Of a stretch of 64,000 bases of DNA, positions 1,825 to 45,956 are shown in pieces; within the stretch, counting starts at the first letter, position 1, and each line of letters starts with the position of its first letter. A program made the position numbers and the translations under genes. Location: contig OZ024741.1 of assembly GCA_964016885.1 (NCBI GenBank), positions 323,330,001 through 323,394,000 of the forward strand. The letters run 5' to 3'. The stretch comes from Eledone cirrhosa (lineage: Eukaryota). The notes under the pieces were generated by a model, which was not told where the DNA came from, ran no database searches, and saw only the letters and a program-made list of their open reading frames with translations.

Positions 1825-3603
1825 GAGGAGTATACAGAGGAGTTCTTTGATGCCACAACACTACATCAAGAAATGGCAACCATCAACCACATAGACATAA
1901 CGGAGGGGGATGTGGTGTACGCCATTGATGAAATTAGAACAGACTCGGCTGCTGGACCTGATGGATTCCCAGCAGTTCTCCTAAAAATATGTAAGCGGGC
2001 CTTAGCAACTCCACTGAAGATGCTCTTCAGAAGCTCCTTGGCTAGCGGTGTACTACCCAGGGAGCTGAAAGAAGGCACAATATGCCCTATCCATAAAGGA
2101 GGTAGTAGAGCGGAGGCCAAGAACTATAGGCCAGTCTCCCTGACGTCGCATATCAGTAAGGTCATGGAGCGAGTCGTAGGAAAGAAACTAATCACTTTCC
2201 TCGAAGAAAATGACCGCCTGACTAGCACGCAACATGGCTTCCGCCCAGGAAGAAGCTGCCTTACACAGCTGCTACATCACTACGACTGGGTACTGAGACA
2301 GCTACTAGACAGCTCACATGTAGACGTGATATATCTTGACTTTGCGAAGGCCTTTGACAAGGTCGACCACGGAATGATATGTCACAAACTACACGGACTC
2401 GGCATAACTGGAAAAGTAGGTGAGTGGCTGCATGGCTTCCTGAGGGACAGAAGCCAGGCAGTCGCAGCAAATGGGGCCCTCTCGAGGGAAACACCGATAA
2501 CAAGTGGGGTGCCTCAGGGGACAGTCCTGGGACCACTACTGTTTTTGGTGGCTCTCTAGGACATGCCCTCTGTGGTGCATGCAACAACATCCCTCACTAG
2601 CTATGCTGATGACACTAAGGTAGCACAGGCAATCAAAAACCCGGCTGACGCTGCCCTCTTACAGCAGGATCTGGATGCCATATACAGATGGGCGGAAGAA
2701 AACAACATGCAGTTTAATGCTGGCAAATTTCAAGCCCTACAATACAAACCTGCAAACACAAACACAAATATAGCGGAACACAGCTACACAGGACCAGGAG
2801 GGACCGATATCCCCGTGTCAAAATCGATACGAGACCTGGGCATAGACATGAGCGATGATGCATCTTTTTCTTCACACATCATGAAGGTGGCGACAGCATG
2901 TAGACGATTCGCTGGCTGGATCTTGAGGACTTTCCTTACAAGAGATCGAGACACCATGTTGACACTGTGGAGGACTTTTGTCCTAAGCCGCCTGGACTAC
3001 TGCTCCCAGCTGTGGTCACCCCATAGTGTCAAACTAACCACAGAGCTTGAGGCAATCCAGCGAAGCTACACCAAGAGGATTGCCAAGATGAGGGAGAAGA
3101 GCTACTGGGAGAGGCTGAAGGAACTGAACCTCTACTCCTTGGAGCGAAGACGGGAGAGATACGCAGTGATCTACATGTGGAAAATCCTGGAGGGACTAGC
3201 ACCAAACTTTGGCATTGGGAGCTGGACCAACCGTCGAACAGGACGTCACTGTGTGGTGCCAAAGGTCCCGTCTTCCACATCTAGAATAAGGAGCAGGTAT
3301 TGCAATAGCCTGGGATTCAAGGGCCCTCAACTCTTCAACAGGCTGCCGAGGCATCTGCGAGACTTGCATGACGTGGAGGTGGATGTCTTTAAGAAACATC
3401 TCGACACCTTGTTATCCAGGATCCCGGATGAGCCCACAGCAAGACACGAGGGAAACCTAAGGGCAGCAGCAACAAACTCCCTCCTACACCAGTGGCCAAC
3501 CTATACAGGCTGGAGATAAAATGTGTAGCAACAAGGGCGGTGCCCCAGCATGGCCTCAGCCGGATGGCTGAAACAGGTAAAAGAGTAAAAGAGTAAAAGA
3601 GTA
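1825..3603 (+). mobile_element. 5'-truncated CR1/L2-group LINE; RT ORF with premature stop (TAG 2557-2559); ORF ends 3519; (AAAAGAGT)n tail
   Basis: [65 protein letters not shown] motifs; 8-bp repeat tail. Confidence 0.93.
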
Positions 3604-3617
3604 ATACATACATATAT

Positions 3618-3656
<39 letters not shown>

Positions 3657-3689
3657 GACTGAGATGTTGGTATACAACCAACATATACT

Positions 3690-3778
<89 letters not shown>

Positions 3779-4045: not shown

Positions 4046-4551
4046 AAGTTGGCACCCTTAACTCACAGTTGGGTGCGGATGCATTCATGTATATATGTGT
4101 GTGTCCGCATGTATCTGTGTGTTTCTAAATGTATTAATAACTCCCTCTGGTCGAGCAATCTTTGAAGTGTGGGGACAACTGGAAAGCTTCCATTACTCAT
4201 ACTTCTCGCCTTCTTCACTACCTCTTCTACGGCCTCGATATGAATACCCCCTCCGCCTCCGTGGTATTTTTTTCGTGGTTATAAGAGGCTTAGCTCTGTT
4301 TCTCGACCGTTATATCGCGTGACTATCTCCCCCTCCGCCTTTTGGGATTCTTTCTCACGTCGTGTAGACGCGTTCTTGAGACTAGTAAAATGAGGTATCC
4401 TCTTGATAAGTCGGCAGACCTCGCAAGGACTCTATATCTTTGATATATTGTTTTTGTTTATGCCACGAAACTACGTAGTCGAGGAATTTAGGAACAGTTT
4501 AGGTATGATACATTTTATTACTAATTATATCTAAATGTTTCTTCTCTCTTC

Positions 4552-4556
<5 letters not shown>
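4046..4556 (+). mobile_element. Truncated copy of the 595-bp retrozyme-like element (family B)
   Basis: Close match to 9907-10422; both ends in (TA)n. Confidence 0.85.
4398..4485 (+). ncRNA. Type I hammerhead ribozyme, U3-A8 core variant
   Basis: Stem I TCCTC/GAGGA; core TTGATAA 4403-4409; stem II GT(C)GGCA/TGCCAC; GAAA 4467-4470; CTACGTAG; GUC cleavage after 4480. Confidence 0.85.
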
Positions 4557-4642
<86 letters not shown>

Positions 4643-5514: not shown

Positions 5515-5545
<31 letters not shown>

Positions 5546-5578
5546 GACTGAGATGTTGGTATACAACCAACATATACT

Positions 5579-5649
<71 letters not shown>

Positions 5650-7175: not shown

Positions 7176-7571
7176 CGATATTAAATAAATGGAAACTATA
7201 TTTATAAAACCATATTTATTTCATTATATATATTTCAGGGATGTCATATTAACAATATGCTATGCCTTCCTCAGACAAAATACAATATAGACAGTTTTAT
7301 AGATAAATAGATTTGACATACCGTTCAACATCGACTTGTATTTGAAAAGTTGATTTGGCAGTGAAAAAATTGTAAACAGAAAGAAAGAAAGAGAGAAAAA
7401 AGGAAAGAAAGAAAAGAAAGAAAGAAAACGAAGAAAAAGAAGAAAAAGAAGAAAAAGAAGAAATGCATGGAACAAAATAGAGAGATGGAGAGATAGATAA
7501 AGAGAAGAACTTCATGTAAAGAAACAGAGAGAGATATATATAGATAGAGGAAATAGATAGAGATAGATATA
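7176..7571 (-). mobile_element. Family A element, inverted copy; HHR at 7217-7282 (-)
   Basis: Reverse complement of 1028-1414 with one extra 9-bp GAAGAAAAA unit. Confidence 0.75.
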
Positions 7572-7759
7572 TATAGAGAAAAGTAGGTAGTTGGACATCC
7601 ATTGAATAAACGTATCAATGATACATTTATTTATTTATTTATTTATTTAGCTCTAGTATTAATGTAAGGGAGATATATGTGGTTAGGAGAGAGACCAGCT
7701 GTTATATAGAGAGAAAAATGAAAAGTAACCAGACATAGGCGAGGCATAAAAACCCTATG

Positions 7760-9038
<1,279 letters not shown>

Positions 9039-9199
9039 GGAGGAGGTTATAGTTCACTTGAAGCATTGTGTAATGAGGTATAAACGTTTGAATATGTGTA
9101 ATAAGGCCAAGACAATGCAGGTATGGACATAGAAAAAAGAATGCAATAGTGAAAGATATTGATGTGAATTCGTCTTTCACCTTGAATTTATTTAAATGT

Positions 9200-9234
9200 C
9201 CTTAATTTTCGAGATAATATCTCTTCTTCGGAGG
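9200..9234 (-). ncRNA. Minimal hammerhead-like motif, CCGAAGA core
   Basis: Mirror of 9305-9339. Confidence 0.55.
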
Positions 9235-9304
9235 GAAGTAAAGGTCTCAAACCAGCGTCTTTAAATCTCGAGATTTAAAGACGCTGGTTTGAGACCTTTA
9301 CTTC

Positions 9305-9339
9305 CCTCCGAAGAAGAGATATTATCTCGAAAATTAAGG
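9305..9339 (+). ncRNA. Minimal hammerhead-like motif, CCGAAGA core
   Basis: Stem I CCT/AGG; CCGAAGA 9308-9314; stem II GAGAT/ATCTC; GAAA 9329-9332; AT; UA. Confidence 0.55.
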
Positions 9340-9453
9340 ACATTTAAATAAATTCAAGGTGAAAGACGAATTCACATCAATATCTTTCACTATTGCATTC
9401 TTTTTTCTATGTCCATACCTGCATTGTCTTGGCCTTATTACACATATTCAAAC

Positions 9454-9498
<45 letters not shown>

Positions 9499-9666
9499 CA
9501 TATATATATATATACACGAATTTTCTTTCGTGGTATTTTCTTCGGGGTTATAAGAGGCTTAGCTCTGTTTCTCGACCGTTATATCGCGTGACTATCTCCC
9601 CCTCCGCCTTTTGGGATTCTTTCTCACGTCGTGTAGACGCGTTCTTGAGACTAGTAAAATGAGGTA

Positions 9667-9756
9667 TCCTCTTGATAAGTCGGCAGACCTCGCAAGGACT
9701 CTATATATTTATGATATATTGTTTTTGTTTATGCCACGAAACTACGTAGTCGAGGA
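9667..9756 (+). ncRNA. Type I hammerhead ribozyme, U3-A8 core
   Basis: TCCTC TTGATAA GTCGGCA..TGCCAC GAAA CTACGTAG TC GAGGA; cleavage after 9751. Confidence 0.85.
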
Positions 9757-10261
9757 ATTTAGGAGCAGTTTAGGTATGATACATTTTATTACTAATTATA
9801 TCTAAATGTTTCTTCTCTCTTCATAATGTATTTTTAACTCTGATACTGGTTCAGTCTAGTTCAACTGAATTGGTCTGTCCCAGTCATTCATTGAGCAACA
9901 TCGGTGAAGTTGGCACCCTTAACTCACAGTTGGGTGCGGATGCATTCATGTATATATGTGTGTGTCCGCGTGTATCTGTGTGTTTCTAAATATATTGTTA
10001 ATAACTCCCTCTGGTCGAGCAATCTTTGAGGTGTGGGGACAGCCGGAAAGCTTCCATTACTCATACTTCTCGCCTTCTTCACCACCTCTTCTACGGCCTC
10101 GATATAAATACCCCCTCCGCCTCCGTGGTATTTTCTTCGGGGTTATAAGAGGCTTAGCTCTGTTTCTCGACCGTTATATCGCGTGACTATCTCCCCCTCC
10201 GCCTTTTGGGATTCTTTCTCACGTCGTGTAGACGCGTTCTTGAGACTAGTAAAATGAGGTA

Positions 10262-10351
10262 TCCTCTTGATAAGTCGGCAGACCTCGCAAGGACTCTATA
10301 TATTTATGATATATTGTTTTTGTTTATGCCACGAAACTACGTAGTCGAGGA
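10262..10351 (+). ncRNA. Type I hammerhead ribozyme, U3-A8 core
   Basis: Same motif as 9667-9756; cleavage after 10346. Confidence 0.85.
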
Positions 10352-10420
10352 ATTTAGGAGCAGTTTAGGTATGATACATTTTATTACTAATTATATCTAA
10401 ATGTTTCTTCTCTCTTCATA

Positions 10421-12343
<1,923 letters not shown>

Positions 12344-12347
<4 letters not shown>

Positions 12348-13355
12348 TGCAACAACATCCCTCACTAGCTATGCTGATGACACTAAGGTAGCACAGGCAA
12401 TCAAAAACCCGGCTGACGCTGCCTTTTTACAGCAGGATCTGAATGCCATATACAGATGGGCGGAAGAAAACAACATGCAGTTTAATGCTCTCAAATTCCA
12501 AGCCCTACAATACAAACCTGCAAACACAAATATAGTGGAACACAGCTACACTGGACCAGGAGGGACCGATATCGCCGTGTCAAAATCGATACGAGACCTG
12601 GGCATAGACATGAGCGATGATGCATCTTTTTCTTCACACATCATGAAAGTTGCGACAACATGCAGACGACTCGCTGGCTGGATCTTGAGGACTTTCCTTA
12701 CAAGAGATCGAGACACCATGTTGACACTGTGGAGGACTTTTGTCCTAAGCCGCCTGGACTACTGCTCCCAGTTGTGGTCACCCCATAGTGTCAGACTAAC
12801 CACGGAGCTTGAGGCAATCCAGCGAAGCTACACCAAGAGGATTGCCAAGATGAGGGAGACAAGCTACTGGGAGAGGCTAAAGGAACTGAACCTCTACTCC
12901 TTGGAGGGAAGACGGGAGAGATACGCAGTGATCTACATGTGGAAAATCCTGGAGGGACTAGCGCCAAACTTTGGCATTGTGAGCTGGACCAACCGTCGAA
13001 CAGGACGTCACTGTGTGGTGCCAAAGGTCCCGTCTTCCACATCTAGAATAAGGAGCAGGTATTGCAATAGCCTGGTATTCAAGGGCCCTCAACTCTTCAA
13101 CAGGCTGCCGAGGCATCTGAGAGACTTGCATGACGTGGAGGGGGATGTCTTTAAGAAACATCTCGACACCTTGCTATCCAGGATCCCGGATGAGTCCACA
13201 GTAAGACACGAGGGAAACCTAAGGGCAGCAGCAACAAACTCCCTCCTGCACCAGTGGCCAACCTATACAGGCTGGAGATAAAATGTGTAGCAACAAGGGC
13301 GGTGCCCCAGCATGGCCTCAGCCGGATGGCTGAAACAGGTAAAAGAGTAAAAGAG

Positions 13356-13383: not shown

Positions 13384-13386
<3 letters not shown>

Positions 13387-31461: not shown

Positions 31462-34400
31462 AATGTGTAGTAATGTGTAGTAATGTGTAGTTATGTGTAG
31501 TAATGTGTAGTAATATGTAGTAATATGTAGTAATGTGTAATAATATGTAGTAATATGTAGCAATATCTAGCAATATGTAGTAATGTGTAGTAATGTGTAG
31601 TAATATGTAGTAATGTGTAGTAATGTATAGTAATATGTAGTAATGTGTAGTAAAATATAGTAATATGTAGTAATATGTAGTTATGTGTAGTAATGTGTAG
31701 TAATGTGTAGTAAAATGTAGTAATATGTAGTAATGTGTAGTAATGTGTAGTAATGTGTAGTAATGTGTAGCAATGTGTAGTAATATGTAGTAATGTGTAG
31801 TAATGTATAGTAATATGTAGTAATGTGTAGTAAAATATAGTAATATGTAGTAATATGTAGTAATATGTAGTTATGTGTAGTAATGTGTAGTAATGTGTAG
31901 TAATGTGTAGTAATGTGTAGAAATATGTAGTAATGTGTAGTAATGTGTAGTATTGTGTAGTAATATGTAGTAATGTGTAGTAATGTGTAGTAATGTGTAG
32001 TAATATGTAGTAATGTGTAGTAATATGTAGTAATGTGTAGTAATGTGTAGTAATGTGTACTAATATGTAGTAATGTATAGTAATGTGTAGTAATATGTAG
32101 TAATATGTAGTAATGTGTAGTAATGTGTAGTAATGTTTAGTAATATGTTGCAATATGTAGTAATATATAGTAATGTGTAGTAAAGTGTAGTAATGTGTAG
32201 TAATGTGTAGTAATATGTAGTAATGTGTAGTAATGTGTAGTAATGTGTAGTAATGTGTAGCAATGTGTAGTAATGTATAGTAATATGTAGTAATGTGTAG
32301 TAATATGTAGTAATGTGTAGTAATATGTAGTAATGTGTAGTAATGTGTAGTAATATGTAGTAATATGTAGCAATATGAAGTAATATGTAGTAATGTGTAC
32401 TAATATGTAGTAATGTGTAGTAATGTGTAGTAATGTGTAGTAATATGTAGTAATATGTAGCAATGTGTAGTAAAATGTAGTAATATGTAGTAATGTGTAG
32501 TAATATGTAGTAATGTGCAGTAATATGTAGTAATATGTAGTAATGTGTAGTAATGTGTAGTAATATGTAGTAATGTGTAGTAATATTTAGTAATGTGTAG
32601 TAATATGTAGTAATATGTAGTAATTTGTAGTAATGTGTAGTAATGTGTAGTAATGTGTAGTAATATGTAGTAATTTATAACAATATGTAGTAATATGTAG
32701 TAATGTGTAGTAATGTGTAGTAATATGTAGTAATGTGTAGTAATGTGTAGTAATATGTAGTAATGTGTAGTAATGTGTAGTAATGTGTTGTAATGTGTAG
32801 TAATATGTAGCAATATATAGTAATATGTAGTAATATGTAGTAATGTGTAGTAATGTGTAGTAATGTATAGCAATATGTAGTAATCTGTAGTAATGTGTAG
32901 TAATATGTAGTAATATGTAGTAATATGTAGCAATATGTAGCAATATCTAGTAATATCTAGTAATATGTAGTAATGTGTAGTAATGTGTAGTAATGTATAG
33001 TAATATGTAGTAATGTGTAGTAAAATATAGTAATATGTAGTAATATGTAGTTATGTGTAGTAATGTGTAGTAATGTGTAGTAATGTGTAGTAAAATGTAG
33101 TAATGTGTAGTAATGTGTAGTAATGTGTAGTAATGTGTAGTATTGTGTAGTAATGTGTAGTAATATGTAGTAATATGTAGTAATGTGGAGTAATGTGTAG
33201 TAATGTGTAGTAATGTGTAGTAATGTATAGTAATATGTAGTAATGTGTAGTAAAATATAGTAATATGTAGTTATGTGTAGTAATGCGCAGTAATGTGTAG
33301 TAATGTGTAGTAAAATGTAGTAATATGTAGTAATGTGTAGTAATGTGTAGTAATGTGTAGTAATGTGTAGTAATGTGTAGTAATATGTAGTAATTTGTAG
33401 TAATATGTAGTAATATGTAGCAATATGTAGTAATGTGTAGTAATGTGTAGTAATATGTAGTAATGTGTAGTAATCTGTAGTAATGTGTAGTAATATGTAG
33501 TAATGTGTAGTAATGTGTAGTAATGTGTAGTAATATGTAGTAATGTGTAGTAATGTGTAGTAATGTGTAGTAATGTGTAGTAATATGTAGTAATGTGTAG
33601 TAATAGGTAGTAATGTGTAGTAATGTGTAGTAATGTGTAGTAATGTGTACTAATATGTAGTAATGTATAGTAATGTGTAGTAATATGTAGTAATATGTAG
33701 TAATGTGTAGTAATGTGTAGTAATGTGTACTAATATGTAGTAATGTATAGTAATGTGTAGTAATATGTAGTAATATGTAGTAATGTTTAGTAATATGTTG
33801 CAATATGTAGTAATATATAGTAATGTGTAGTAATGTGTAGTAATGTGTAGTAATGTGTAGTAATATGTAGTAATGTGTAGTAATGTGTAGTAATATGTAG
33901 TAATGTGTAGCAATGTGTAGTAATGTATAGTAATATGTAGTAATGTGTAGCAATATGTAGTAATGTGTACTAATATGTAGTAATGTGCAGTAATGTGTAG
34001 TAATGTGTAGTAATATGTAGTAATGTGTAGTAATGTGTAGTAATGTGTAGTAATGTGTAGTAATATGTAGTAATATGTAGCAATATGAAGTAATATGTAG
34101 TAATGTGTACTAATATGAAGTAATGTGTAGTAATGTGCAGTAATATGTAGTAATGTGTAGTAATGTGTAGTAATGTGTAGTAATATGTAGTAATATGTAG
34201 TAATATGTAGTAATGTGTAGTAAAATGTAGTAATATGTAGTAATGTATAGTAATATGTAGTAATGTGTAGTAATATGTAGTAATATGTAGGAATGTGTAG
34301 TAATATGTAGTAATGTGTAGTAATGTGTAGTAATATGTAGTAATGTGTAGTAATATGTAGTAATGTGTAGTAATGTGTAGTAATGTATAGTAATGTGTAG

Positions 34401-37400
34401 TAATGTATAGTAATGTGTAGTAATATGTAGTAATATGTAGTAATGTGTAGTAATGTGTAGTAATGTGTAGTAATGTGTAGTAATATGTAGTAATTTATAG
34501 CAATACGTAGTAATATGTAGTAATGTGTAGTAATGTGTAGTAATATGTAGTAATGTGTAGTAATGTGTAGTAATATGTAGTAATGTGTAGTAATGTGTAG
34601 TAATGTGTAGTAATGTGTAGTAATATGTAGCAATATATAGTAATATGTAGTAATATGTAGTAATATGTAGTAATGTGTAGTAATATGTAGTAATGTGTAG
34701 TAATGTGTAGTAATATGTAGTAATGTGTAGTAATATGTAGTAATGTGTAGTAATGTGTAGTAATATGTACTAATGTGTAGTAATGTGTAGTAATGTGTAG
34801 TAATGTGTAGTAATATGTAGCCATATATAGTAATATGTAGTAATATGTAGTAATGTGTAGTAATGTGTAGTAATGTGTAGTAATATGTAGTAATTTATAG
34901 CAATATGTAGTAATATGTAGTAATGTGTAGTAATGTGTAGTAATGTGTAGTAATATGTAGCAATATGTAGTAATTTGTAGTAATGTGTAGTAATGTGTAG
35001 TAATGTGTAGTAATGTGTAGTAATGTGTAGTAATATGTAGTAATCTGTAGCAATATGTAGTAATGTGTAGTAATGTGTAGTAATGTGTAGTAATGTGTAG
35101 TAATGTGTAGTAATATGTAGTAATGTGTAGTAATATGTAGTAATGTGTAGTAATATGTAGTAATGTGTAGTAATGTGTAGTAATATGTAGTAATGTGTAG
35201 TAATGTGTAGTAAAATGTAGTAATATGTAGCAATATGTAGTAATTTGTAGTAATGTGTAGTAATGTGTAGTAATATGTAGTAATGTGTAGTAATGTGTAG
35301 TAATATGTAGTAATGTGTTGTAATATGTATTAATATGTAGTAATGTGTAGTAATGTGTAGTAATGTGTAGTAAAATATAGTAATATGTAGTAATATGTAG
35401 TAATATGTAGTAATATGTAGTAATGTGTAGTAATGTGTAGTAATGTGTAGTAATGTGTAGTAATATGTAGTAATATGTAGTAATGTGTAGTAATGTGTAG
35501 TAATGTGTAGTAATGTGTAGTAATATGTAGTAATGTGTAGTAAAATGTAGTAATATGTAGTAATTTGTAGTAATGTGTAGTAATGTGTAGTAATATGTAG
35601 TAATGTGTAGTAATATGTAGTAATCTGTAGCAATATGTAGTAATGTGTAGTAATGTGTAGTAATGTGTAGTAATGTGTAGTAATATGTAGTAATGTGTAG
35701 TAATATGTAGTAATGTGTAGTAATGTGTAGTAATGTGTAGTAATATGTAGTAATGTGTAGTAATATGTAGTAATGTGTAGTAATGTGTAGTAATATGTAG
35801 TAATGTGTAGTAATGTGTAGTAATATGTAGTAATGTGTAGTAATGTGTACTAATATGTAGTAATGTATAGTAATGTGTAGTAATATGTAGTAATATGTAG
35901 TAATGTGAAGTAATGTGTAGTAATGTGTAGTAATATGTAGCAATATATAGTAATATATAGTAATGTGTAGTAATATGTAGTAATCTGTAGTAATGTGTAG
36001 TAATGTGTAGTAATATGTAGTAATGTGTAGTAATATGTAGTAATGTGTAGTAATGTGGAGTAATATGTAGTAATTTGTAGTAATGTGTAGTAATGTGTAG
36101 TAATATGTAGTAATGTGTAGTAATATGTAGTAATGTGTAGTAATATGTAGCAATATGTAGTAATATATAGTAATGTGTAGTAATGTTTAGTAATGTGTAG
36201 TAATGTGTAGTAATATGTAGTAATGTATAGTAATATGTAGTAATATATAGCAATATGTAGTAATATGTAGTAATTTGTAGTAATATGTAGTAATGTGTAG
36301 TAATGTGTAGTAATGTGTAGTAATGTGTAGTAATATGTAGTAATATGTAGTAATGTGTAGTAATATGTAGCAATATCTAGTAATATGTAGTAATGTGTAT
36401 TAACGTGTAGTAATGTGTAGTAATGTGTAGTAATGTGTAGTAATATGTAGTAATATGTAGCAATATGAAGTAATATGTAGTAATGTGTACTAATATGAAG
36501 TAATGTGTAGTAATGTGCAGTAATATGTAGTAATGTGTAGTAATGTGTAGTAATGTGTAGTAATATGTAGTAATATGTAGTAATATGTAGTAATGTGTAG
36601 TAAAATGTAGTAATATGTAGTAATGTATAGTAATATGTAGTAATGTGTAGTAATATGTAGTAATATGTAGGAATGTGTAGTAATATGTAGTAATGTGTAG
36701 TAATGTGTAGTAATATGTAGTAATGTGTAGTAATGTGTAGTAATATGTAGTAATGTGTAGTAATATGTAGTAATGTATAGTAAAATGTAGTAATATGTAT
36801 TAATGTGTAGTAATGTGTAGTAATGTGTAGTAATGTGTAGTAATATGTAGTAATGTGTAGTAATGTGTAGTAATGTATAGTAATGTGTAGTAATGTATAG
36901 TAATGTGTAGTAATATGTAGTAATATGTAGTAATGTGTAGTAATGTGTAGTAATGTGTAGTAATGTGTAGTAATATGTAGTAATTTATAGCAATACGTAG
37001 TAATATGTAGTAATGTGTAGTAATGTGTAGTAATATGTAGTAATGTGTAGTAATGTGTAGTAATATGTAGTAATGTGTAGTAATGTGTAGTAATGTGTAG
37101 TAATGTGTAGTAATATGTAGCAATATATAGTAATATGTAGTAATATGTAGTAATATGTAGTAATGTGTAGTAATATGTAGTAATGTGTAGTAATGTGTAG
37201 TAATATGTAGTAATGTGTAGTAATATGTAGTAATGTGTAGTAATGTGTAGTAATATGTACTAATGTGTAGTAATGTGTAGTAATGTGTAGTAATGTGTAG
37301 TAATATGTAGCCATATATAGTAATATGTAGTAATATGTAGTAATGTGTAGTAATGTGTAGTAATGTGTAGTAATATGTAGTAATTTATAGCAATATGTAG

Positions 37401-40400
37401 TAATATGTAGTAATGTGTAGTAATGTGTAGTAATGTGTAGTAATATGTAGCAATATGTAGTAATTTGTAGTAATGTGTAGTAATGTGTAGTAATGTGTAG
37501 TAATGTGTAGTAATGTGTAGTAATATGTAGTAATCTGTAGCAATATGTAGTAATGTGTAGTAATGTGTAGTAATGTGTAGTAATGTGTAGTAATGTGTAG
37601 TAATATGTAGTAATGTGTAGTAATATGTAGTAATGTGTAGTAATATGTAGTAATGTGTAGTAATGTGTAGTAATATGTAGTAATGTGTAGTAATGTGTAG
37701 TAAAATGTAGTAATATGTAGCAATATGTAGTAATTTGTAGTAATGTGTAGTAATGTGTAGTAATATGTAGTAATGTGTAGTAATGTGTAGTAATATGTAG
37801 TAATGTGTTGTAATATGTATTAATATGTAGTAATGTGTAGTAATGTGTAGTAATGTGTAGTAAAATATAGTAATATGTAGTAATATGTAGTAATATGTAG
37901 TAATATGTAGTAATGTGTAGTAATGTGTAGTAATGTGTAGTAATGTGTAGTAATATGTAGTAATATGTAGTAATGTGTAGTAATGTGTAGTAATGTGTAG
38001 TAATGTGTAGTAATATGTAGTAATGTGTAGTAAAATGTAGTAATATGTAGTAATTTGTAGTAATGTGTAGTAATGTGTAGTAATATGTAGTAATGTGTAG
38101 TAATATGTAGTAATCTGTAGCAATATGTAGTAATGTGTAGTAATGTGTAGTAATGTGTAGTAATGTGTAGTAATATGTAGTAATGTGTAGTAATATGTAG
38201 TAATGTGTAGTAATGTGTAGTAATGTGTAGTAATATGTAGTAATGTGTAGTAATATGTAGTAATGTGTAGTAATGTGTAGTAATATGTAGTAATGTGTAG
38301 TAATGTGTAGTAATATGTAGTAATGTGTAGTAATGTGTACTAATATGTAGTAATGTATAGTAATGTGTAGTAATATGTAGTAATATGTAGTAATGTGAAG
38401 TAATGTGTAGTAATGTGTAGTAATATGTAGCAATATATAGTAATATATAGTAATGTGTCGTAATATGTAGTAATCTGTAGTAATGTGTAGTAATGTGTAG
38501 TAATATGTAGTAATGTGTAGTAATATGTAGTAATGTGTAGTAATGTGGAGTAATATGTAGTAATTTGTAGTAATGTGTAGTAATGTGTAGTAATATGTAG
38601 TAATGTGTAGTAATATGTAGTAATGTGTAGTAATATGTAGCAATATGTAGTAATATATAGTAATGTGTAGTAATGTTTAGTAATGTGTAGTAATGTGTAG
38701 TAATATGTAGTAATGTATAGTAATATGTAGTAATATATAGCAATATGTAGTAATATGTAGTAATTTGTAGTAATATGTAGTAATGTGTAGTAATGTGTAG
38801 TAATGTGTAGTAATGTGTAGTAATATGTAGTAATATGTAGTAATGTGTAGTAATATGTAGCAATATCTAGTAATATGTAGTAATGTGTAGTAATGTGTAG
38901 TAATATGTAGTAATATGTAGTAATGTGTAGTAGTATGTAGTAATGTGTAGTAATATGTAGTAATGTGTAGTAATGTATAGTAAAATGTAGTAATGTGTAG
39001 TAATGTGTTATAATGTGTAGTAATATGTAGTAATGTGTAGTAATGTGTAGTAATGTGTAGTAATATGTAGTAATATGTAGTAATTTGTAGTAATGTGTAG
39101 TAATGTGTAGTAATGTGTAGTAATGTGTAGTAATGTGTAGTAATGTGTAGTAATGTGTAGTAATGTGTAGTAATATGTAGTAATTTATAGCAATATGTAG
39201 TAATGTGTAGTAATGTGTAGTAATGTGTAGTAATGTGTAGTAATGTGTAGTAATATGTAGTAATGTGTAGTAATATGTAGTAATGTGTAGTAATATGTAG
39301 TAATGTGTAGTAATGTGTAGTAATATGTAGTAATGTGTAGTAATGTGTAGTAAAATGTAGTAATATGTAGCAACATGTAGTAATTTGTAGTAATGTGTAG
39401 TAATGTGTAGTAATGTGTAGTAATATGTAGTAATGTGTAGTAATGTGTAGTAATATGTAGTAATGTGTAGTAATGTGTAGTAATGTGTAGTAAAATGTAG
39501 TAATATGTAGTAATTTGTAGTAATATGTAGTAATGTGTAGTAATGTGTAGTAATGTGTAGTAATGTGTAGTAATATGTAGTAATGTGTAGTAATGTGTAG
39601 TAATATGTAGTAATGTGTAGTAAAATGTAGTAATATGTAGTAATTTGTAGTAATGTGTAGTAATGTGTAGTAATATGTAGTAATGTGTAGTAATATGTAG
39701 TAATCTGTAGCAATATGTAGTAATGTGTAGTAATGTGTAGTAATATGTAGTAGTGTGTAGTAATGTGTAGTAATATGTAGTAATTTGTAGTAATGTGTAG
39801 TAATGTGTAGTAATATGTAGTAATGTGTAGTAATATGTAGTAATGTGTAGTAATATGTAGTAATGTGTAGCAAAATGTAGTAATATGTAGTAATTTGTAG
39901 TAATGTGTAGTAATGTGTAGTAATATGTAGTAATGTGTAGTAATATGTAGTAATCTGTAGCAATATGTAGTAATGTGTAGTAATGTGTAGTAATGTGTAG
40001 TAATGTGTAGTAATGTGTAGTAATATGTAGTAATGTGTAGTAATATGTAGTAATGTGTAGTAATGTGTAGTAATGTGTAGTAATGTGTCGTAATATGTAG
40101 TAATATGTAGTAATGTGTAGTAATGTGTACTAATATGTAGTAATGTATAGTAATGTGTAGTAATATGTAGTAATGTAGTAATGTGTAGTAATGTGTAGTA
40201 ATGTGTAGTAATGTGTAGTAATATGTAGTAATCTGTAGCAATATGTAGTAATGTGTAGTAATGTGTAGTAATGTGTAGTAATGTGTAGTAATGTGTAGTA
40301 ATATGTAGTAATCTGTAGCAATATGTAGTAATGTGAGAGTCGGCTTTATTCGTAGTGATTTTTTGGGGCGGTGTTAACTTTAACATGTGTAGTAATGTGT

Positions 40401-43400
40401 AGTAATGTGTAATAATGTGTAGTAATGTGTAGTAATATGTAGTAATGTGTAGTAATATGTAGTAATGTGTAGTAATATGTAGCAATATGTAGTAATATAT
40501 AGTAATGTGTAGTAATGTGTAGTAATGTGTAGTAATGTGTAGTAATATGTAGTAATGTGTAGTAATGTGTAGTAATATGTAGTAATTTGTAGTAATATGT
40601 AGTAATGTGTAGTAATGTGTAGTAATGTGTAGTAATGTGTAGTAATGTGTAGTAATGTGTAGTAATATGTAGTAATATGTAGTAATGTGTAGTAATATGT
40701 AGCAATATCTAGTAATATGTAGTAATGTGTAGTAATGTGTAGTAATATGTAGTAATGTGTAGTAATATGTAGTAATGTGTAGTAATGTATAGTAAAATGT
40801 AGTAATGTGTAGTAATATGTAGTAATGTGTAGTAATATGTAGTAATATGTAGTAATGTGTAGTAATGTGTAGTAATATGTAGTAATGTGTAGTAATGTGT
40901 AGTAATGTGTAGTAATGTGTAGTAATATGTAGTAATATGTAGTAATATGTAGTAATATGTAGTAATGTGTTGCAATATGTAGTAATATGTAGTAATCTGT
41001 AGCAATATGTAGTAATGTATTATAATGTGTAGTAATATGTAGTAATGTGTAGTAATGTGTAGTAATGTGTAGTAATATGTAGTAATGTGTAGTAATATGT
41101 AGTAATGTGTAGTAATGTGTAGTAATGTGTAGTAATATGTAGTAATATGTAGTAATGTGTTGTAAAATGTAGTAATATGTAGTAATGTGTAGTAATATGT
41201 AGTAATGTGTAGTAATATGTAGTAATGTGTAGTAATGTGAAGTAATGTGTAGTAATGTGTAGTAATATGTAGCAATATATAGTAATATATAGTAATGTGT
41301 CGTAATATGTAGTAATCTGTAGTAATGTGTAGTAATGTGTAGTAATATGTAGTAATGTGTAGTAATATGTAGTAATGTGTAGTAATGTGGAGTAATATGT
41401 AGTAATTTGTAGTAATGTGTAGTAATGTGTAGTAATATGTAGTAATGTGTAGTAATATGTAGTAATGTGTAGTAATATGTAGCAATATGTAGTAATATAT
41501 AGTAATGTGTAGTAATGTTTAGTAATGTGTAGTAATGTGTAGTAATATGTAGTAATGTATAGTAATATGTAGTAATATATAGCAATATGTAGTAATATGT
41601 AGTAATTTGTAGTAATATGTAGTAATGTGTAGTAATGTGTAGTAATGTGTAGTAATGTGTAGTAATATGTAGTAATATGTAGTAATGTGTAGTAATATGT
41701 AGCAATATCTAGTAATATGTAGTAATGTGTAGTAATGTGTAGTAATATGTAGTAATATGTAGTAATGTGTAGTAGTATGTAGTAATGTGTAGTAATATGT
41801 AGTAATGTGTAGTAATGTATAGTAAAATGTAGTAATGTGTAGTAATGTGTTATAATGTGTAGTAATATGTAGTAATGTGTAGTAATGTGTAGTAATGTGT
41901 AGTAATATGTAGTAATATGTAGTAATTTGTAGTAATGTGTAGTAATGTGTAGTAATGTGTAGTAATGTGTAGTAATGTGTAGTAATGTGTAGTAATGTGT
42001 AGTAATGTGTAGTAATATGTAGTAATTTATAGCAATATGTAGTAATGTGTAGTAATGTGTAGTAATGTGTAGTAATGTGTAGTAATGTGTAGTAATATGT
42101 AGTAATGTGTAGTAATATGTAGTAATGTGTAGTAATATGTAGTAATGTGTAGTAATGTGTAGTAATATGTAGTAATGTGTAGTAATGTGTAGTAAAATGT
42201 AGTAATATGTAGCAACATGTAGTAATTTGTAGTAATGTGTAGTAATGTGTAGTAATGTGTAGTAATATGTAGTAATGTGTAGTAATGTGTAGTAATATGT
42301 AGTAATGTGTAGTAATGTGTAGTAATGTGTAGTAAAATGTAGTAATATGTAGTAATTTGTAGTAATATGTAGTAATGTGTAGTAATGTGTAGTAATGTGT
42401 AGTAATGTGTAGTAATATGTAGTAATGTGTAGTAATGTGTAGTAATATGTAGTAATGTGTAGTAAAATGTAGTAATATGTAGTAATTTGTAGTAATGTGT
42501 AGTAATGTGTAGTAATATGTAGTAATGTGTAGTAATATGTAGTAATCTGTAGCAATATGTAGTAATGTGTAGTAATGTGTAGTAATATGTAGTAGTGTGT
42601 AGTAATGTGTAGTAATATGTAGTAATTTGTAGTAATGTGTAGTAATGTGTAGTAATATGTAGTAATGTGTAGTAATATGTAGTAATGTGTAGTAATATGT
42701 AGTAATGTGTAGCAAAATGTAGTAATATGTAGTAATTTGTAGTAATGTGTAGTAATGTGTAGTAATATGTAGTAATGTGTAGTAATATGTAGTAATCTGT
42801 AGCAATATGTAGTAATGTGTAGTAATGTGTAGTAATGTGTAGTAATGTGTAGTAATGTGTAGTAATATGTAGTAATGTGTAGTAATATGTAGTAATGTGT
42901 AGTAATGTGTAGTAATGTGTAGTAATGTGTCGTAATATGTAGTAATATGTAGTAATGTGTAGTAATGTGTACTAATATGTAGTAATGTATAGTAATGTGT
43001 AGTAATATGTAGTAATGTAGTAATGTGTAGTAATGTGTAGTAATGTGTAGTAATGTGTAGTAATATGTAGTAATCTGTAGCAATATGTAGTAATGTGTAG
43101 TAATGTGTAGTAATGTGTAGTAATGTGTAGTAATGTGTAGTAATATGTAGTAATCTGTAGCAATATGTAGTAATGTGAGAGTCGGCTTTATTCGTAGTGA
43201 TTTTTTGGGGCGGTGTTAACTTTAACATGTGTAGTAATGTGTAGTAATGTGTAATAATGTGTAGTAATGTGTAGTAATATGTAGTAATGTGTAGTAATAT
43301 GTAGTAATGTGTAGTAATATGTAGCAATATGTAGTAATATATAGTAATGTGTAGTAATGTGTAGTAATGTGTAGTAATGTGTAGTAATATGTAGTAATGT

Positions 43401-44883
43401 GTAGTAATGTGTAGTAATATGTAGTAATTTGTAGTAATATGTAGTAATGTGTAGTAATGTGTAGTAATGTGTAGTAATGTGTAGTAATGTGTAGTAATGT
43501 GTAGTAATATGTAGTAATATGTAGTAATGTGTAGTAATATGTAGCAATATCTAGTAATATGTAGTAATGTGTAGTAATGTGTAGTAATATGTAGTAATGT
43601 GTAGTAATATGTAGTAATGTGTAGTAATGTATAGTAAAATGTAGTAATGTGTAGTAATATGTAGTAATGTGTAGTAATATGTAGTAATATGTAGTAATGT
43701 GTAGTAATGTGTAGTAATATGTAGTAATGTGTAGTAATGTGTAGTAATGTGTAGTAATGTGTAGTAATATGTAGTAATATGTAGTAATATGTAGTAATAT
43801 GTAGTAATGTGTTGCAATATGTAGTAATATGTAGTAATCTGTAGCAATATGTAGTAATGTATTATAATGTGTAGTAATATGTAGTAATGTGTAGTAATGT
43901 GTAGTAATGTGTAGTAATATGTAGTAATGTGTAGTAATATGTAGTAATGTGTAGTAATGTGTAGTAATGTGTAGTAATATGTAGTAATATGTAGTAATGT
44001 GTTGTAAAATGTAGTAATATGTAGTAATGTGTAGTAATATGTAGTAATGTGTAGTAATATGTAGTAATGTGTAGTAATGTGTAGTAATATGTAGTAATAT
44101 GTAGTAATGTGTAGTAATGTGTAGTAATATGTAGTAATGTGTAGTAATATGTAGTAATGTGTAGTAATATGTAGTAATGTGTAGTAAACTGTAGTAATAT
44201 GTAGTAATGTGTAGTAATATGTAGTAATGTGTAGTAATATATAGTAATGTGTAGTAATGTGTAGTAATATGTAGTAATATGTAGTAATGTGTAGTAATGT
44301 GTAGTAATATGTAGTAATGTGTAGTAATATGTAGTAATGTGTAGCAATATGTAGTAATGTGTAGTAATGTGTAGTAATATGTAGTAATATGTAGGAATGT
44401 GTAGTAATATGTAGTAATGTGTAGTAATGTGTAGTAATATGTCGTAATGTGTAGTAATATGTAGCAATATCTAGTAATATGTAGTAATGTGTATTAACGT
44501 GTAGTAATATGTAGTAATGTGTAGTAATGTGTAGTAATATGTAGTAATGTGTAGTAATGTGTAGTAATATGTAGTAATGTGTAGTAATATGTAGTAATAT
44601 GTAGTAATGTGTAGTAATGTGTAGTAATATGTAGTAATGTGTAGTAATGTGTAGTAATGTGTAGTAATATGTAATAATATGTAGTAATGTGTAGTAATAT
44701 GTAGTAATGTGTAGTAATATGTAGTAATGTGTAGTAATATGTAGTAATGTGTAGTAATGTGTAGTAATATGTAATAATGTGTAGTAATATGTAGGAATGT
44801 GTAGTAATGTATAGTAATATGTAGTAATGTGTAGTATTGTGTAGTAATGTGTAGTAATGTGTAGTAATGTGTAGTAATGTGTA
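31462..44883. repeat. 13.4-kb 10-bp satellite with higher-order duplications
   Basis: (TAAT[A/G]TGTAG)n; variant strings recur at 2490- and 2842-bp offsets. Confidence 0.98.
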
Positions 44884-44884
44884 C

Positions 44885-45956
44885 TGAGGTGTAGAAAAGA
44901 ATTTTTTCAGAGCTGCTTTAATGTTTATATTGGCTCCTTGGTACATGCCGGTGTTACTGCCGGTGGTGTTGAAGGACATACCAATTACTCTATCTTCAAT
45001 TCTGAGTAATTGAATTTCCTTCAAAACAACTTCAGCGACTGGTCGTCCGGTTACATCTCTTGTAATAGGAACACATAAGAGCTCCTCCTCCTCTTTCCCC
45101 CGTAACTAAAACTTCAATCCGATCTTCGAATGTGCTAGATCGGGAAGCCGATAGTAATAATTCTCTATCCCAGTGGACGACGAGCCAAAATATGTTTTCA
45201 GGTGGGAAAGTGGATAACTCGGTTTCTCACAGTGAATGGTTCTTGCTCGATAAACAGTTGAGTATGAAACCGAAAGTTCAGACACATCATGACCAAGACT
45301 CTCCGCAATTGCAATGTTAGAAGTCCTTGCTTGTCGTACCGATAGTTTCTCACGTTCCCACGTGTGGCGTTGAGAGTCGGCTTTATTCGTAGTGATTTTT
45401 TGGGGCGGTGTTAACTTTAACATTTCCTTATCATCATCACGCATAGCTGAGCTGGATGACAAATTTCAAGAGCTACTTCTCGGACATCTTGATTCCTTCA
45501 TCTTTTTCTTTTTCTTACTTTCATATCGTGAATCCTCTTTTCTTTCTTCTGAATTGTTCTCGCATATTCTGCTTCGACAGCAGCCAGAGACGAAGGCATT
45601 CGATCTACCTGCCGTATCTCAAAGAAAGCTTTGTCTTCAGATGGGACATCCTTTCGTTCGAGAACGTCCTGACTTGCAATATCAAAAATTTCCTCAAGAT
45701 CACCTATCCAAATTTTACACTTTGCAATTGCTTTGTCAGTCATCCTTGATTTTTCTTTTTGCAGTCCTTATACAATTTATCGATTGAAGTGCAGATGTTT
45801 TTTTTTCCATATTGGTTGGGATATTTGTTTTTTTACGATAACTGAAATCTCTTCGAGTTCGATTTGATGGAAGAGTAAACAACAGCACTTGATGTTTGGT
45901 GGCAAGTCGAATCTGAGGTAACTACCCCTCGGGATTTTTTTCAAGCTCGTTTCCAT
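44885..45956 (-). pseudogene. Decayed DNA transposase, hATm-like; 3' part replaced by satellite
   Basis: LEEIFDIA..EDKAFF, YSTVYRAR, LVVHWD, LLCVP, VIGMSFNTTGSNTG motifs across frameshifts. Confidence 0.7.

Follow-up and report, generated by a model that had tools for sequence, protein, structure and literature searches.

The window, i.e. the whole 64,000-nucleotide stretch of Eledone cirrhosa DNA analysed here, contains at positions 9529-10426 an exact 303-bp direct repeat (9529-9831 and 10124-10426, 100% identical) with a period of 595 and a 292-bp centre. Hammerhead cores were observed at 9667 and 10262, with GUC triplets ending at 9751 and 10346. The repeat, period, centre and triplet ends were re-found exactly as given in a preliminary description of this DNA. 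The direct repeats represent the overlap within a 1.5-unit tandem and not LTRs, and other loci carry up to 4.9 units per arm. Positions in the monomer 9529-10123 are given as q numbers, and the predicted cut lies between q223 and q224. The observed and predicted features are as follows:

9529..10426, + strand: single insertion of 1.5 units of the 595-bp monomer, 5'-truncated, ending at the fixed end A, with (TA)n on both sides
9529..9831, + strand: copy 1 of the 303-bp overlap (q1-303), identical to 10124-10426
10124..10426, + strand: copy 2 of the 303-bp overlap, ending at end A
9660..9692, + strand: predicted pseudoknot of 9660-9665 (5' flank of stem I) with 9687-9692 (internal loop of stem II)
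9667..9756, + strand: predicted type I hammerhead 1, with stem I at 9667-9671/9752-9756 and the U3-A8 core at 9672-9678
3' parts of hammerhead 1, + strand: extended stem II at 9679-9737, GAAA at 9738-9741, palindromic stem III at 9741-9750 and predicted cut after 9751
10262..10351, + strand: predicted type I hammerhead 2, of the same sequence as hammerhead 1, with predicted cut after 10346
9752..10346, + strand: predicted 595-nt monomer between the two cuts, which cleavage would release
9761..9813, + strand: conserved hairpin upstream of end A, with 95.5% of cells paired; the old subfamily lacks one base per side
9818..9835, + strand: segment across end A that is predicted to base-pair with 9738-9756, the 3' half of the hammerhead, and to inactivate the ribozyme in the monomer
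9831, + strand: family-wide fixed 3' end A (q301-304), 80 nt past the cut, used by 43 of 89 arms; the present copy uses end A at 10426
9845..9884, + strand: conserved centre hairpin, inner helix at 9856-9873, with one double-sided change
9934..9971, + strand: conserved hairpin upstream of end B, with 100% of cells paired and 9 of 12 pairs varying on one side
9992..10003, + strand: family-wide fixed 3' end B, within q464-475 and mostly at 467-468, about 245 nt past the cut, used by 41-42 of 89 arms
10092..10168, + strand: zone in which 5' ends gather (q564-q45; 29 of 89 5' ends), a possible transcription start or reverse-transcriptase stall
4046..4560, + strand: separate insertion belonging to the 591-bp subfamily, truncated on its 5' side and ending at end A, with one hammerhead (core at 4398)

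Both insertions lie in (TA)n. The longest ATG frame in the circularly read monomer is 76 aa, no tRNA was found in the monomer, and no reverse transcriptase (RT) or GIY-YIG reading frame was found in the unit. A TATA-like stretch at 10104-10111 was considered as a promoter element and set aside, as it is not fixed in the family. Several other repeats were observed in the window. Just upstream of the 1.5-mer lies a perfect 364-bp palindrome (9088-9451) that ends at (TA)n and whose arm repeats the end of 7178-7910; it may be a further head-to-head insertion or an assembly fold-back. A 36-nt island recurs in the TA tracts (3656-3691, 5545-5580, 10962-10996 and in reverse at 13385, where it runs on into unique sequence), and two similar fragments of a non-LTR reverse transcriptase frame (1825-3603 and 12352-13354) lie near these islands. 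A satellite with a 10-bp unit occupies 13.4 kb at 31462-44894 and also occurs at 2-812.

A 21-nt core pattern gave 6,045 matches genome-wide and none for the reversed control, so the hammerhead repeat is present far beyond chance. The matches comprised 6,031 U3-A8, 8 U3-G8 and 6 C3-A8 cores, with no C3-G8 core among them, which bears out the earlier view that U3-A8 is the state of this family and not a decay product of CTGATGA. The accompanying statement that U3-A8 is rare does not hold for the present genome: a Watson-Crick 3-8 pair was observed in 10 of 11 hammerhead-like motif types from 20 other loci, 6 of them U-A and 4 C-G, while the eleventh lacks stem I. In one tandem (G000:C19:18237720-18238331) U3-G8 was observed in both units, so its source copy likely had the wobble pair there. 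A short hammerhead-like pattern gave 44,612 matches genome-wide compared with 6,107 in the control, spread over many families.

The copies form dispersed 590-597-bp repeats on many contigs, often tandem and inverted, and a search with the monomer returned matches at 98-99% (162 matches from 39 of 1,198 candidates). The first 100 core matches, which fall in 56 stretches of contig C1, served as an unbiased sample of loci and extrapolate to roughly 3,400 loci genome-wide. The family core was present in 98 of 99 extracted hammerheads. An older subfamily is about 80-82% alike to the young one. The copy at 4046-4560, previously taken for a diverged sister of the main copy, is 96.8% alike to it, 99.8% alike to locus L060 and more than 99% alike to nine further loci of the 591-bp subfamily, and was therefore assigned as a separate insertion of that subfamily. 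No LTR organisation was apparent, as the repeat length varies between loci with 5' truncation. The retrozyme assignment of the preliminary description is upheld by the non-coding, tandem, dispersed and multicopy units with a type I hammerhead in each. Judged by its copies, the family is a high-copy, young, non-coding retrozyme-type element with U3-A8 as its family state.

The 56 unbiased stretches gave 59 clusters with 89 arms, and these revealed a Penelope-type insertion anatomy that had been missed earlier. A total of 84-85 of the 89 arms ended at A (q301-304) or B (q464-475), and (TA)4 was observed within 12 nt of the end in 80 of 85 A or B arms. Among head-to-head loci that could be classified, 56 of 57 had one A end and one B end (27 of 27 in the unbiased set, 15 of 16 among the young top hits and 14 of 14 among the old-subfamily hits); 12 inverted loci whose end was odd or cut off are left out of this count, and the 27 include two loci that form a local duplicate. 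Target site duplications are otherwise hidden in the (TA)n, and one 12-bp duplication-like flank was seen (L008). The predicted cut site was crossed by 78 of the 89 arms, and 38 were longer than one unit, the longest measuring 2,928 nt. Permuted multimers, for which a genome search had been proposed, were thus found, with up to 4.9 units in one arm.

The 5' ends varied. None of the 89 lay within 5 nt of the predicted cut and one lay within 10 nt, compared with about 3 expected, while 29 fell in q564-q45 where a simple length model predicts 13-14%. The present copy is among these 29, and its 5' end may mark the start of a linear transcript, so the 1.5-mer, which had been offered as what copying around a circle would leave, is by itself no argument for a circle. 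Run-off or jumping of the enzyme at the cut site was rejected from the single 5' end within 10 nt and the lack of any cut-site indel in 99 copies. Divergence between units was 0.39% inside an arm, 0.37% from one arm of a locus to the other and 3.8% between loci. A private change was present either in every overlapping unit (31 cases) or in a single unit (64), and never in a subset of them, although many of these cases comprise just two units; at L070, four private changes were present in 7 of 7 or 8 of 8 units, in both arms. At the arm junction of that locus (L070:5664-5724) an 11-nt piece of the element (q54-64) is repeated head to tail several times, which looks as though one spot of the template had been copied over and over. 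Priming of the L1 twin type on one linear RNA is disfavoured because the arms overlap in the template and 5' ends are not gathered at A or B.

The hammerhead has type I topology, with a 5-bp stem I, the U3-A8 core, G10.1-C11.1, a long stem II, GAAA, NUH and a palindromic stem III. What had been called loop II is a long extension of stem II with an internal loop that is predicted to be able to pair with the 5' flank of stem I; the six pairs of this predicted pseudoknot (duplex -6.9 kcal/mol) were formed in 97.1% of cells, with one pair occurring as U-A, U-G and C-G. The majority letters of the young and old subfamilies differed at 2 of 55 hammerhead positions compared with 88 of 363 positions elsewhere in q45-462 (Fisher p 1e-4), where the 55 positions were picked from the model and the count takes in gap columns. 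The two differences are an inserted loop base and a change of A-U to G-U. Mutations found in single copies were no rarer in the hammerhead (0.38 per site) than elsewhere (0.28). On this subfamily comparison the hammerhead is considered to be under purifying selection.

An 80-pair structure model, derived from the tested sequences themselves, had 95.5% of cells paired across 17 copies. Its covariation score exceeded that of 500 of 500 shuffles, a kind of score that relatedness inflates, and 4 of 80 pairs had changed on both sides, a number reached by 67 of 500 shuffles; the alignment thus lends the structure modest covariation support. Three hairpins had been described for the centre, of which the third, at 9934-9971, stood (100% of cells paired) and the first two did not (64.7% and 67.3%), and a conserved one was observed instead at 9856-9873. 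The 595-nt monomer is predicted to fold with a z of -4.69 (none of 100 shuffles equally stable), while the hammerhead region, folded by itself, does not exceed shuffles in stability (z 0.02). Within one molecule stem III has 3 pairs, and between two molecules it is predicted to form a 10-bp duplex of -12.9 kcal/mol. When the monomer is circular, q290-307 is the predicted pairing partner of the hammerhead's 3' half, with a locking-pair probability of 0.92-0.96 in the window monomer and about 0.6 in an old copy, and the active fold is predicted to lie 8.0 kcal/mol (window) or 6.1 kcal/mol (old copy) above the minimum of the circle, the pseudoknot not being counted. Rfam gave no hammerhead match at the gathering score or at E up to 5; its other hits were weak, below gathering, and mostly microsatellite matches to miRNA models.

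A total of 10,596 GIY-YIG candidates were observed in the genome, which belong to six or more related families whose linker is CX4CxxC or similar, and the CX4CxxC linker is described as a mark of Neptune/Nematis elements (PMC8557442). One family, represented by L119, has a 938-aa frame in which GIY-YIG scores above its cut-off and the reverse transcriptase, at 28 bits, just below, together with a CX4CxxC linker and a minimal U3-A8 hammerhead in its terminal repeats. Young copies of the L119 family (about 95-99%) end in (TA)n, 82 or 150 nt past their predicted cut, compared with 80 and 245 nt for the retrozyme, and both pairs of ends resemble each other in a few letters. Inverted L119 loci had one of each end in 7 of 7 cases, with two more having a near-A end and one another site; since the L119 query favoured the second end, the informative test is that the other arm never repeats it. 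From these features L119 represents a putative autonomous Penelope-like family with the same target, two-end pattern and U3-A8 core as the retrozyme. U3-A8-like cores were also found in three other Penelope families.

The retrozyme monomer showed no homology to 10 regions (3' regions) of six Penelope families, with local alignment scores of 22-31 against shuffled maxima of 24-32. No parent element was recognised by homology among 50 GIY-YIG loci apart from one adjacent insertion, and a search for a short-loop version of the hammerhead gave a single match, a deleted tandem copy. A Penelope-like enzyme class as mobiliser is well supported by the shared insertion pattern, and, as the monomer lacks sequence homology to these elements, the L119 family is a candidate partner only. 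Terminal fragments of the L119 family were seen in the same or a nearby TA tract as retrozymes at L011, L015, L016, L018, L033, L049 and L063. The direct retrozyme-Penelope fusion at L049 was considered as template switching and is read instead as a nested insertion at a shared TA site.

We consider it reasonably probable that the family is a U3-A8 retrozyme that is cut and circularised, and that a Penelope-like reverse transcriptase copies the circle into TA microsatellites from two fixed starts. The process would begin with transcription of an arm containing at least two hammerheads. Cutting after GUC is predicted to take place during transcription, before the downstream blocking segment has been made, and probably as a dimer through the palindromic stem III. 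By analogy with other animal retrozymes, for which circles and RtcB ligation are reported (PMC7229834), a host ligase would close the monomer, and the ribozyme is predicted to be locked by the resulting fold. Both (TA)n strands would then be nicked by a Penelope protein of the Neptune/Nematis type, probably acting as a dimer; two internal start sites, extension of both strands and a predicted dimer are reported for Penelope (PMC11167929). One strand would be primed at A and the opposite strand at B, two sites with short AU-rich stretches similar to the target. The DNA pattern suggests copying past the cut site for up to five units with variable stops, which would leave single arms or head-to-head pairs. 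Near-identical units within an insertion and read-through of the cut site are both predicted by copying around a circle.

A more specific version, which we put forward tentatively, is that a Penelope RT dimer on one circular RNA primes both strands at fixed sites 165 nt apart, one subunit per site, and that the helix locking the U3-A8 ribozyme also frames start site A. If true, the family would provide a natural substrate, compact and protein-free, in which the Penelope integration mechanism is recorded, and ribozyme switching would be tied to reverse transcription.

A possible alternative, to which we give roughly a quarter of our credence, has the same element and Penelope enzyme using an uncut linear transcript that starts near q564-q45, with multimers arising from tandem sources or from strand transfer that joins the terminal repeats of a 1.5-unit RNA seamlessly, and with the hammerhead selected for another role such as transcript trimming or protein binding. 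We retain it at this level because the anole Penelope protein inserts both uncut and cut RNA in vitro, uncut RNA being its main substrate and no reads ending at the cut site (PMC11167929), because 8 of 9 Xenopus retrozyme dimers are reported not to have cut in vitro, and because 5' ends, that of the present copy included, cluster upstream of the hammerhead. An uncut RNA would account equally well for read-through of the cut site. However, 60 of the 89 5' ends lie outside q564-q45, uniform arms of 3-5 units with private changes in both arms would need a one-unit bottleneck or a uniform source, the letters of the catalytic core are fixed across subfamilies, and other animal retrozymes are reported to occur as circles. 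Contigs from sequencing runs of unspecified kind cover the monomer and the L119 element; a 620-nt contig from one such run (X4) would fit a closed loop, yet tandem DNA gives the same, and it was not used.

It is improbable that, instead of being a stand-alone non-coding unit, the copies are 3' terminal repeats of an undiscovered autonomous Penelope-like element. L119-family fragments of truncated terminal repeats resemble them in target and ends, and the unbiased sample comprises 56 loci only, but what precedes a unit is in every case a further unit, an inverted arm or flanking DNA, the unit runs back into its own start for up to 4.9 turns with no ATG frame longer than that given above, and the 50 GIY-YIG loci lack homology except for the adjacent insertion. 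Spread without RNA, as a satellite or rolling-circle element at the DNA level whose hammerhead is a matter of chance or a relic, would also give uniform tandem units within a locus through unequal crossing over, but it is very improbable given the fixed 3' and ragged 5' ends, the head-to-head arms, the strand-specific RNA structure kept through G-U changes, the conserved hammerhead and the same pattern in an RT-coding family.

The favoured circle-copying retrozyme resembles the metazoan non-LTR retrozymes (Cervera and de la Pena 2020, PMC7229834; Li, Clavereau and Pollet 2026, 10.64898/2026.07.22.740005) as they are described in the available text: tandem units that are non-coding and each contain one type I hammerhead, copy numbers in the thousands, an absence of LTR features, a structured monomer and Penelope-like elements in the same genome. 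It differs in its U3-A8 core, long stem II and predicted pseudoknot. The unit of 590-597 nt is longer than the 170-400 reported in PMC7229834 and lies within the range of 51-972 given in the 2026 preprint. The ribozyme is predicted to be locked in the monomer, while PMC7229834 reports locking for plant retrozymes and not for most animal ones. Circles are demonstrated for those metazoan retrozymes and predicted for the present family. The available portions of PMC7229834 and the preprint contain no description of (TA)n targeting with two fixed ends for metazoan retrozymes.

Neptune/Nematis Penelope elements (Craig et al. 2021, PMC8557442; Frangieh et al. 2024, PMC11167929) are reported to share with the present family 5'-truncated partial tandems, an inverted 5' arm, a microsatellite target, two internal starts, a tail at one end and a hammerhead upstream of the ends. 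Unlike Penelope, the present family has no RT or endonuclease. Its tail is 165 nt, compared with 30-40 nt in print and 68 nt in the L119 family, and both of its starts lie at AU-rich, target-like stretches, whereas the anole element is reported to start without target homology. U3-A8 hammerheads with the same 3-8 covariation are on record (Cervera and de la Pena 2014, PMC4209133; Perreault et al. 2011, PMC3088659), including about 1,300 hits in Schistosoma mansoni. As described there the motifs are mostly single, heterogeneous and minimal, whereas here a young tandem family has U3-A8 as its fixed state, together with an extended stem II. Penelope hammerheads in print have a palindromic short stem III and dimer activity (dimer cleavage in PMC5785218, as cited in PMC6765202), and stem I-II pseudoknots are reported as common among published hammerheads; both are predicted here. 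Plant LTR retrozymes also have two hammerheads in direct repeats around a monomer of about 600 nt, but these are described as type III hammerheads in true LTRs with PBS/PPT and 4-bp target duplications, compared with type I and a locus-variable repeat length here. The available text of PMC13282606 makes no mention of hammerheads or retrozymes.

Novelty had been set too high in the preliminary description, as U3-A8 Penelope hammerheads (PMC4209133) and animal retrozymes (PMC7229834) were already published. Animal retrozymes and their circles, a proposed Penelope link, U3-A8 and a Penelope tail with two start sites are all in print in the sources available, so the gain lies in mechanistic detail and testability. 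We found no one-of-each end rule or (TA)n targeting for any retrozyme in the literature outside subscription journals and supplements. The mobilising enzyme of animal retrozymes and the copying of circles are proposed without demonstration in the text of PMC7229834, and the 2026 preprint states that the mobilisation mechanism is still to be elucidated. The present family offers thousands of young insertions with a sharp footprint of two starts, one per target strand, as in the putative autonomous Penelope family, and it thereby predicts exact start positions that could be tested in vitro on circular and linear RNA. Evidence of selection on a U3-A8 hammerhead comes in addition.

Two further tandem hammerhead families were observed. 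One has a 466-467-bp unit with a C3-G8 core and lies mostly in (TA)n (G000:C1:5738326-5752444, comprising L178 and L179; L171, L183 and L186-L188). It includes an inverted array with about 31 units in one arm, and its arms end 234 and 303 nt past the cut; an arm of about 31 units fits a circle, but later expansion could also be responsible. The other (L180:2940-4560) has a 316-bp unit with a U3-A8 core in six units, and related single copies were found at L177 and L181.
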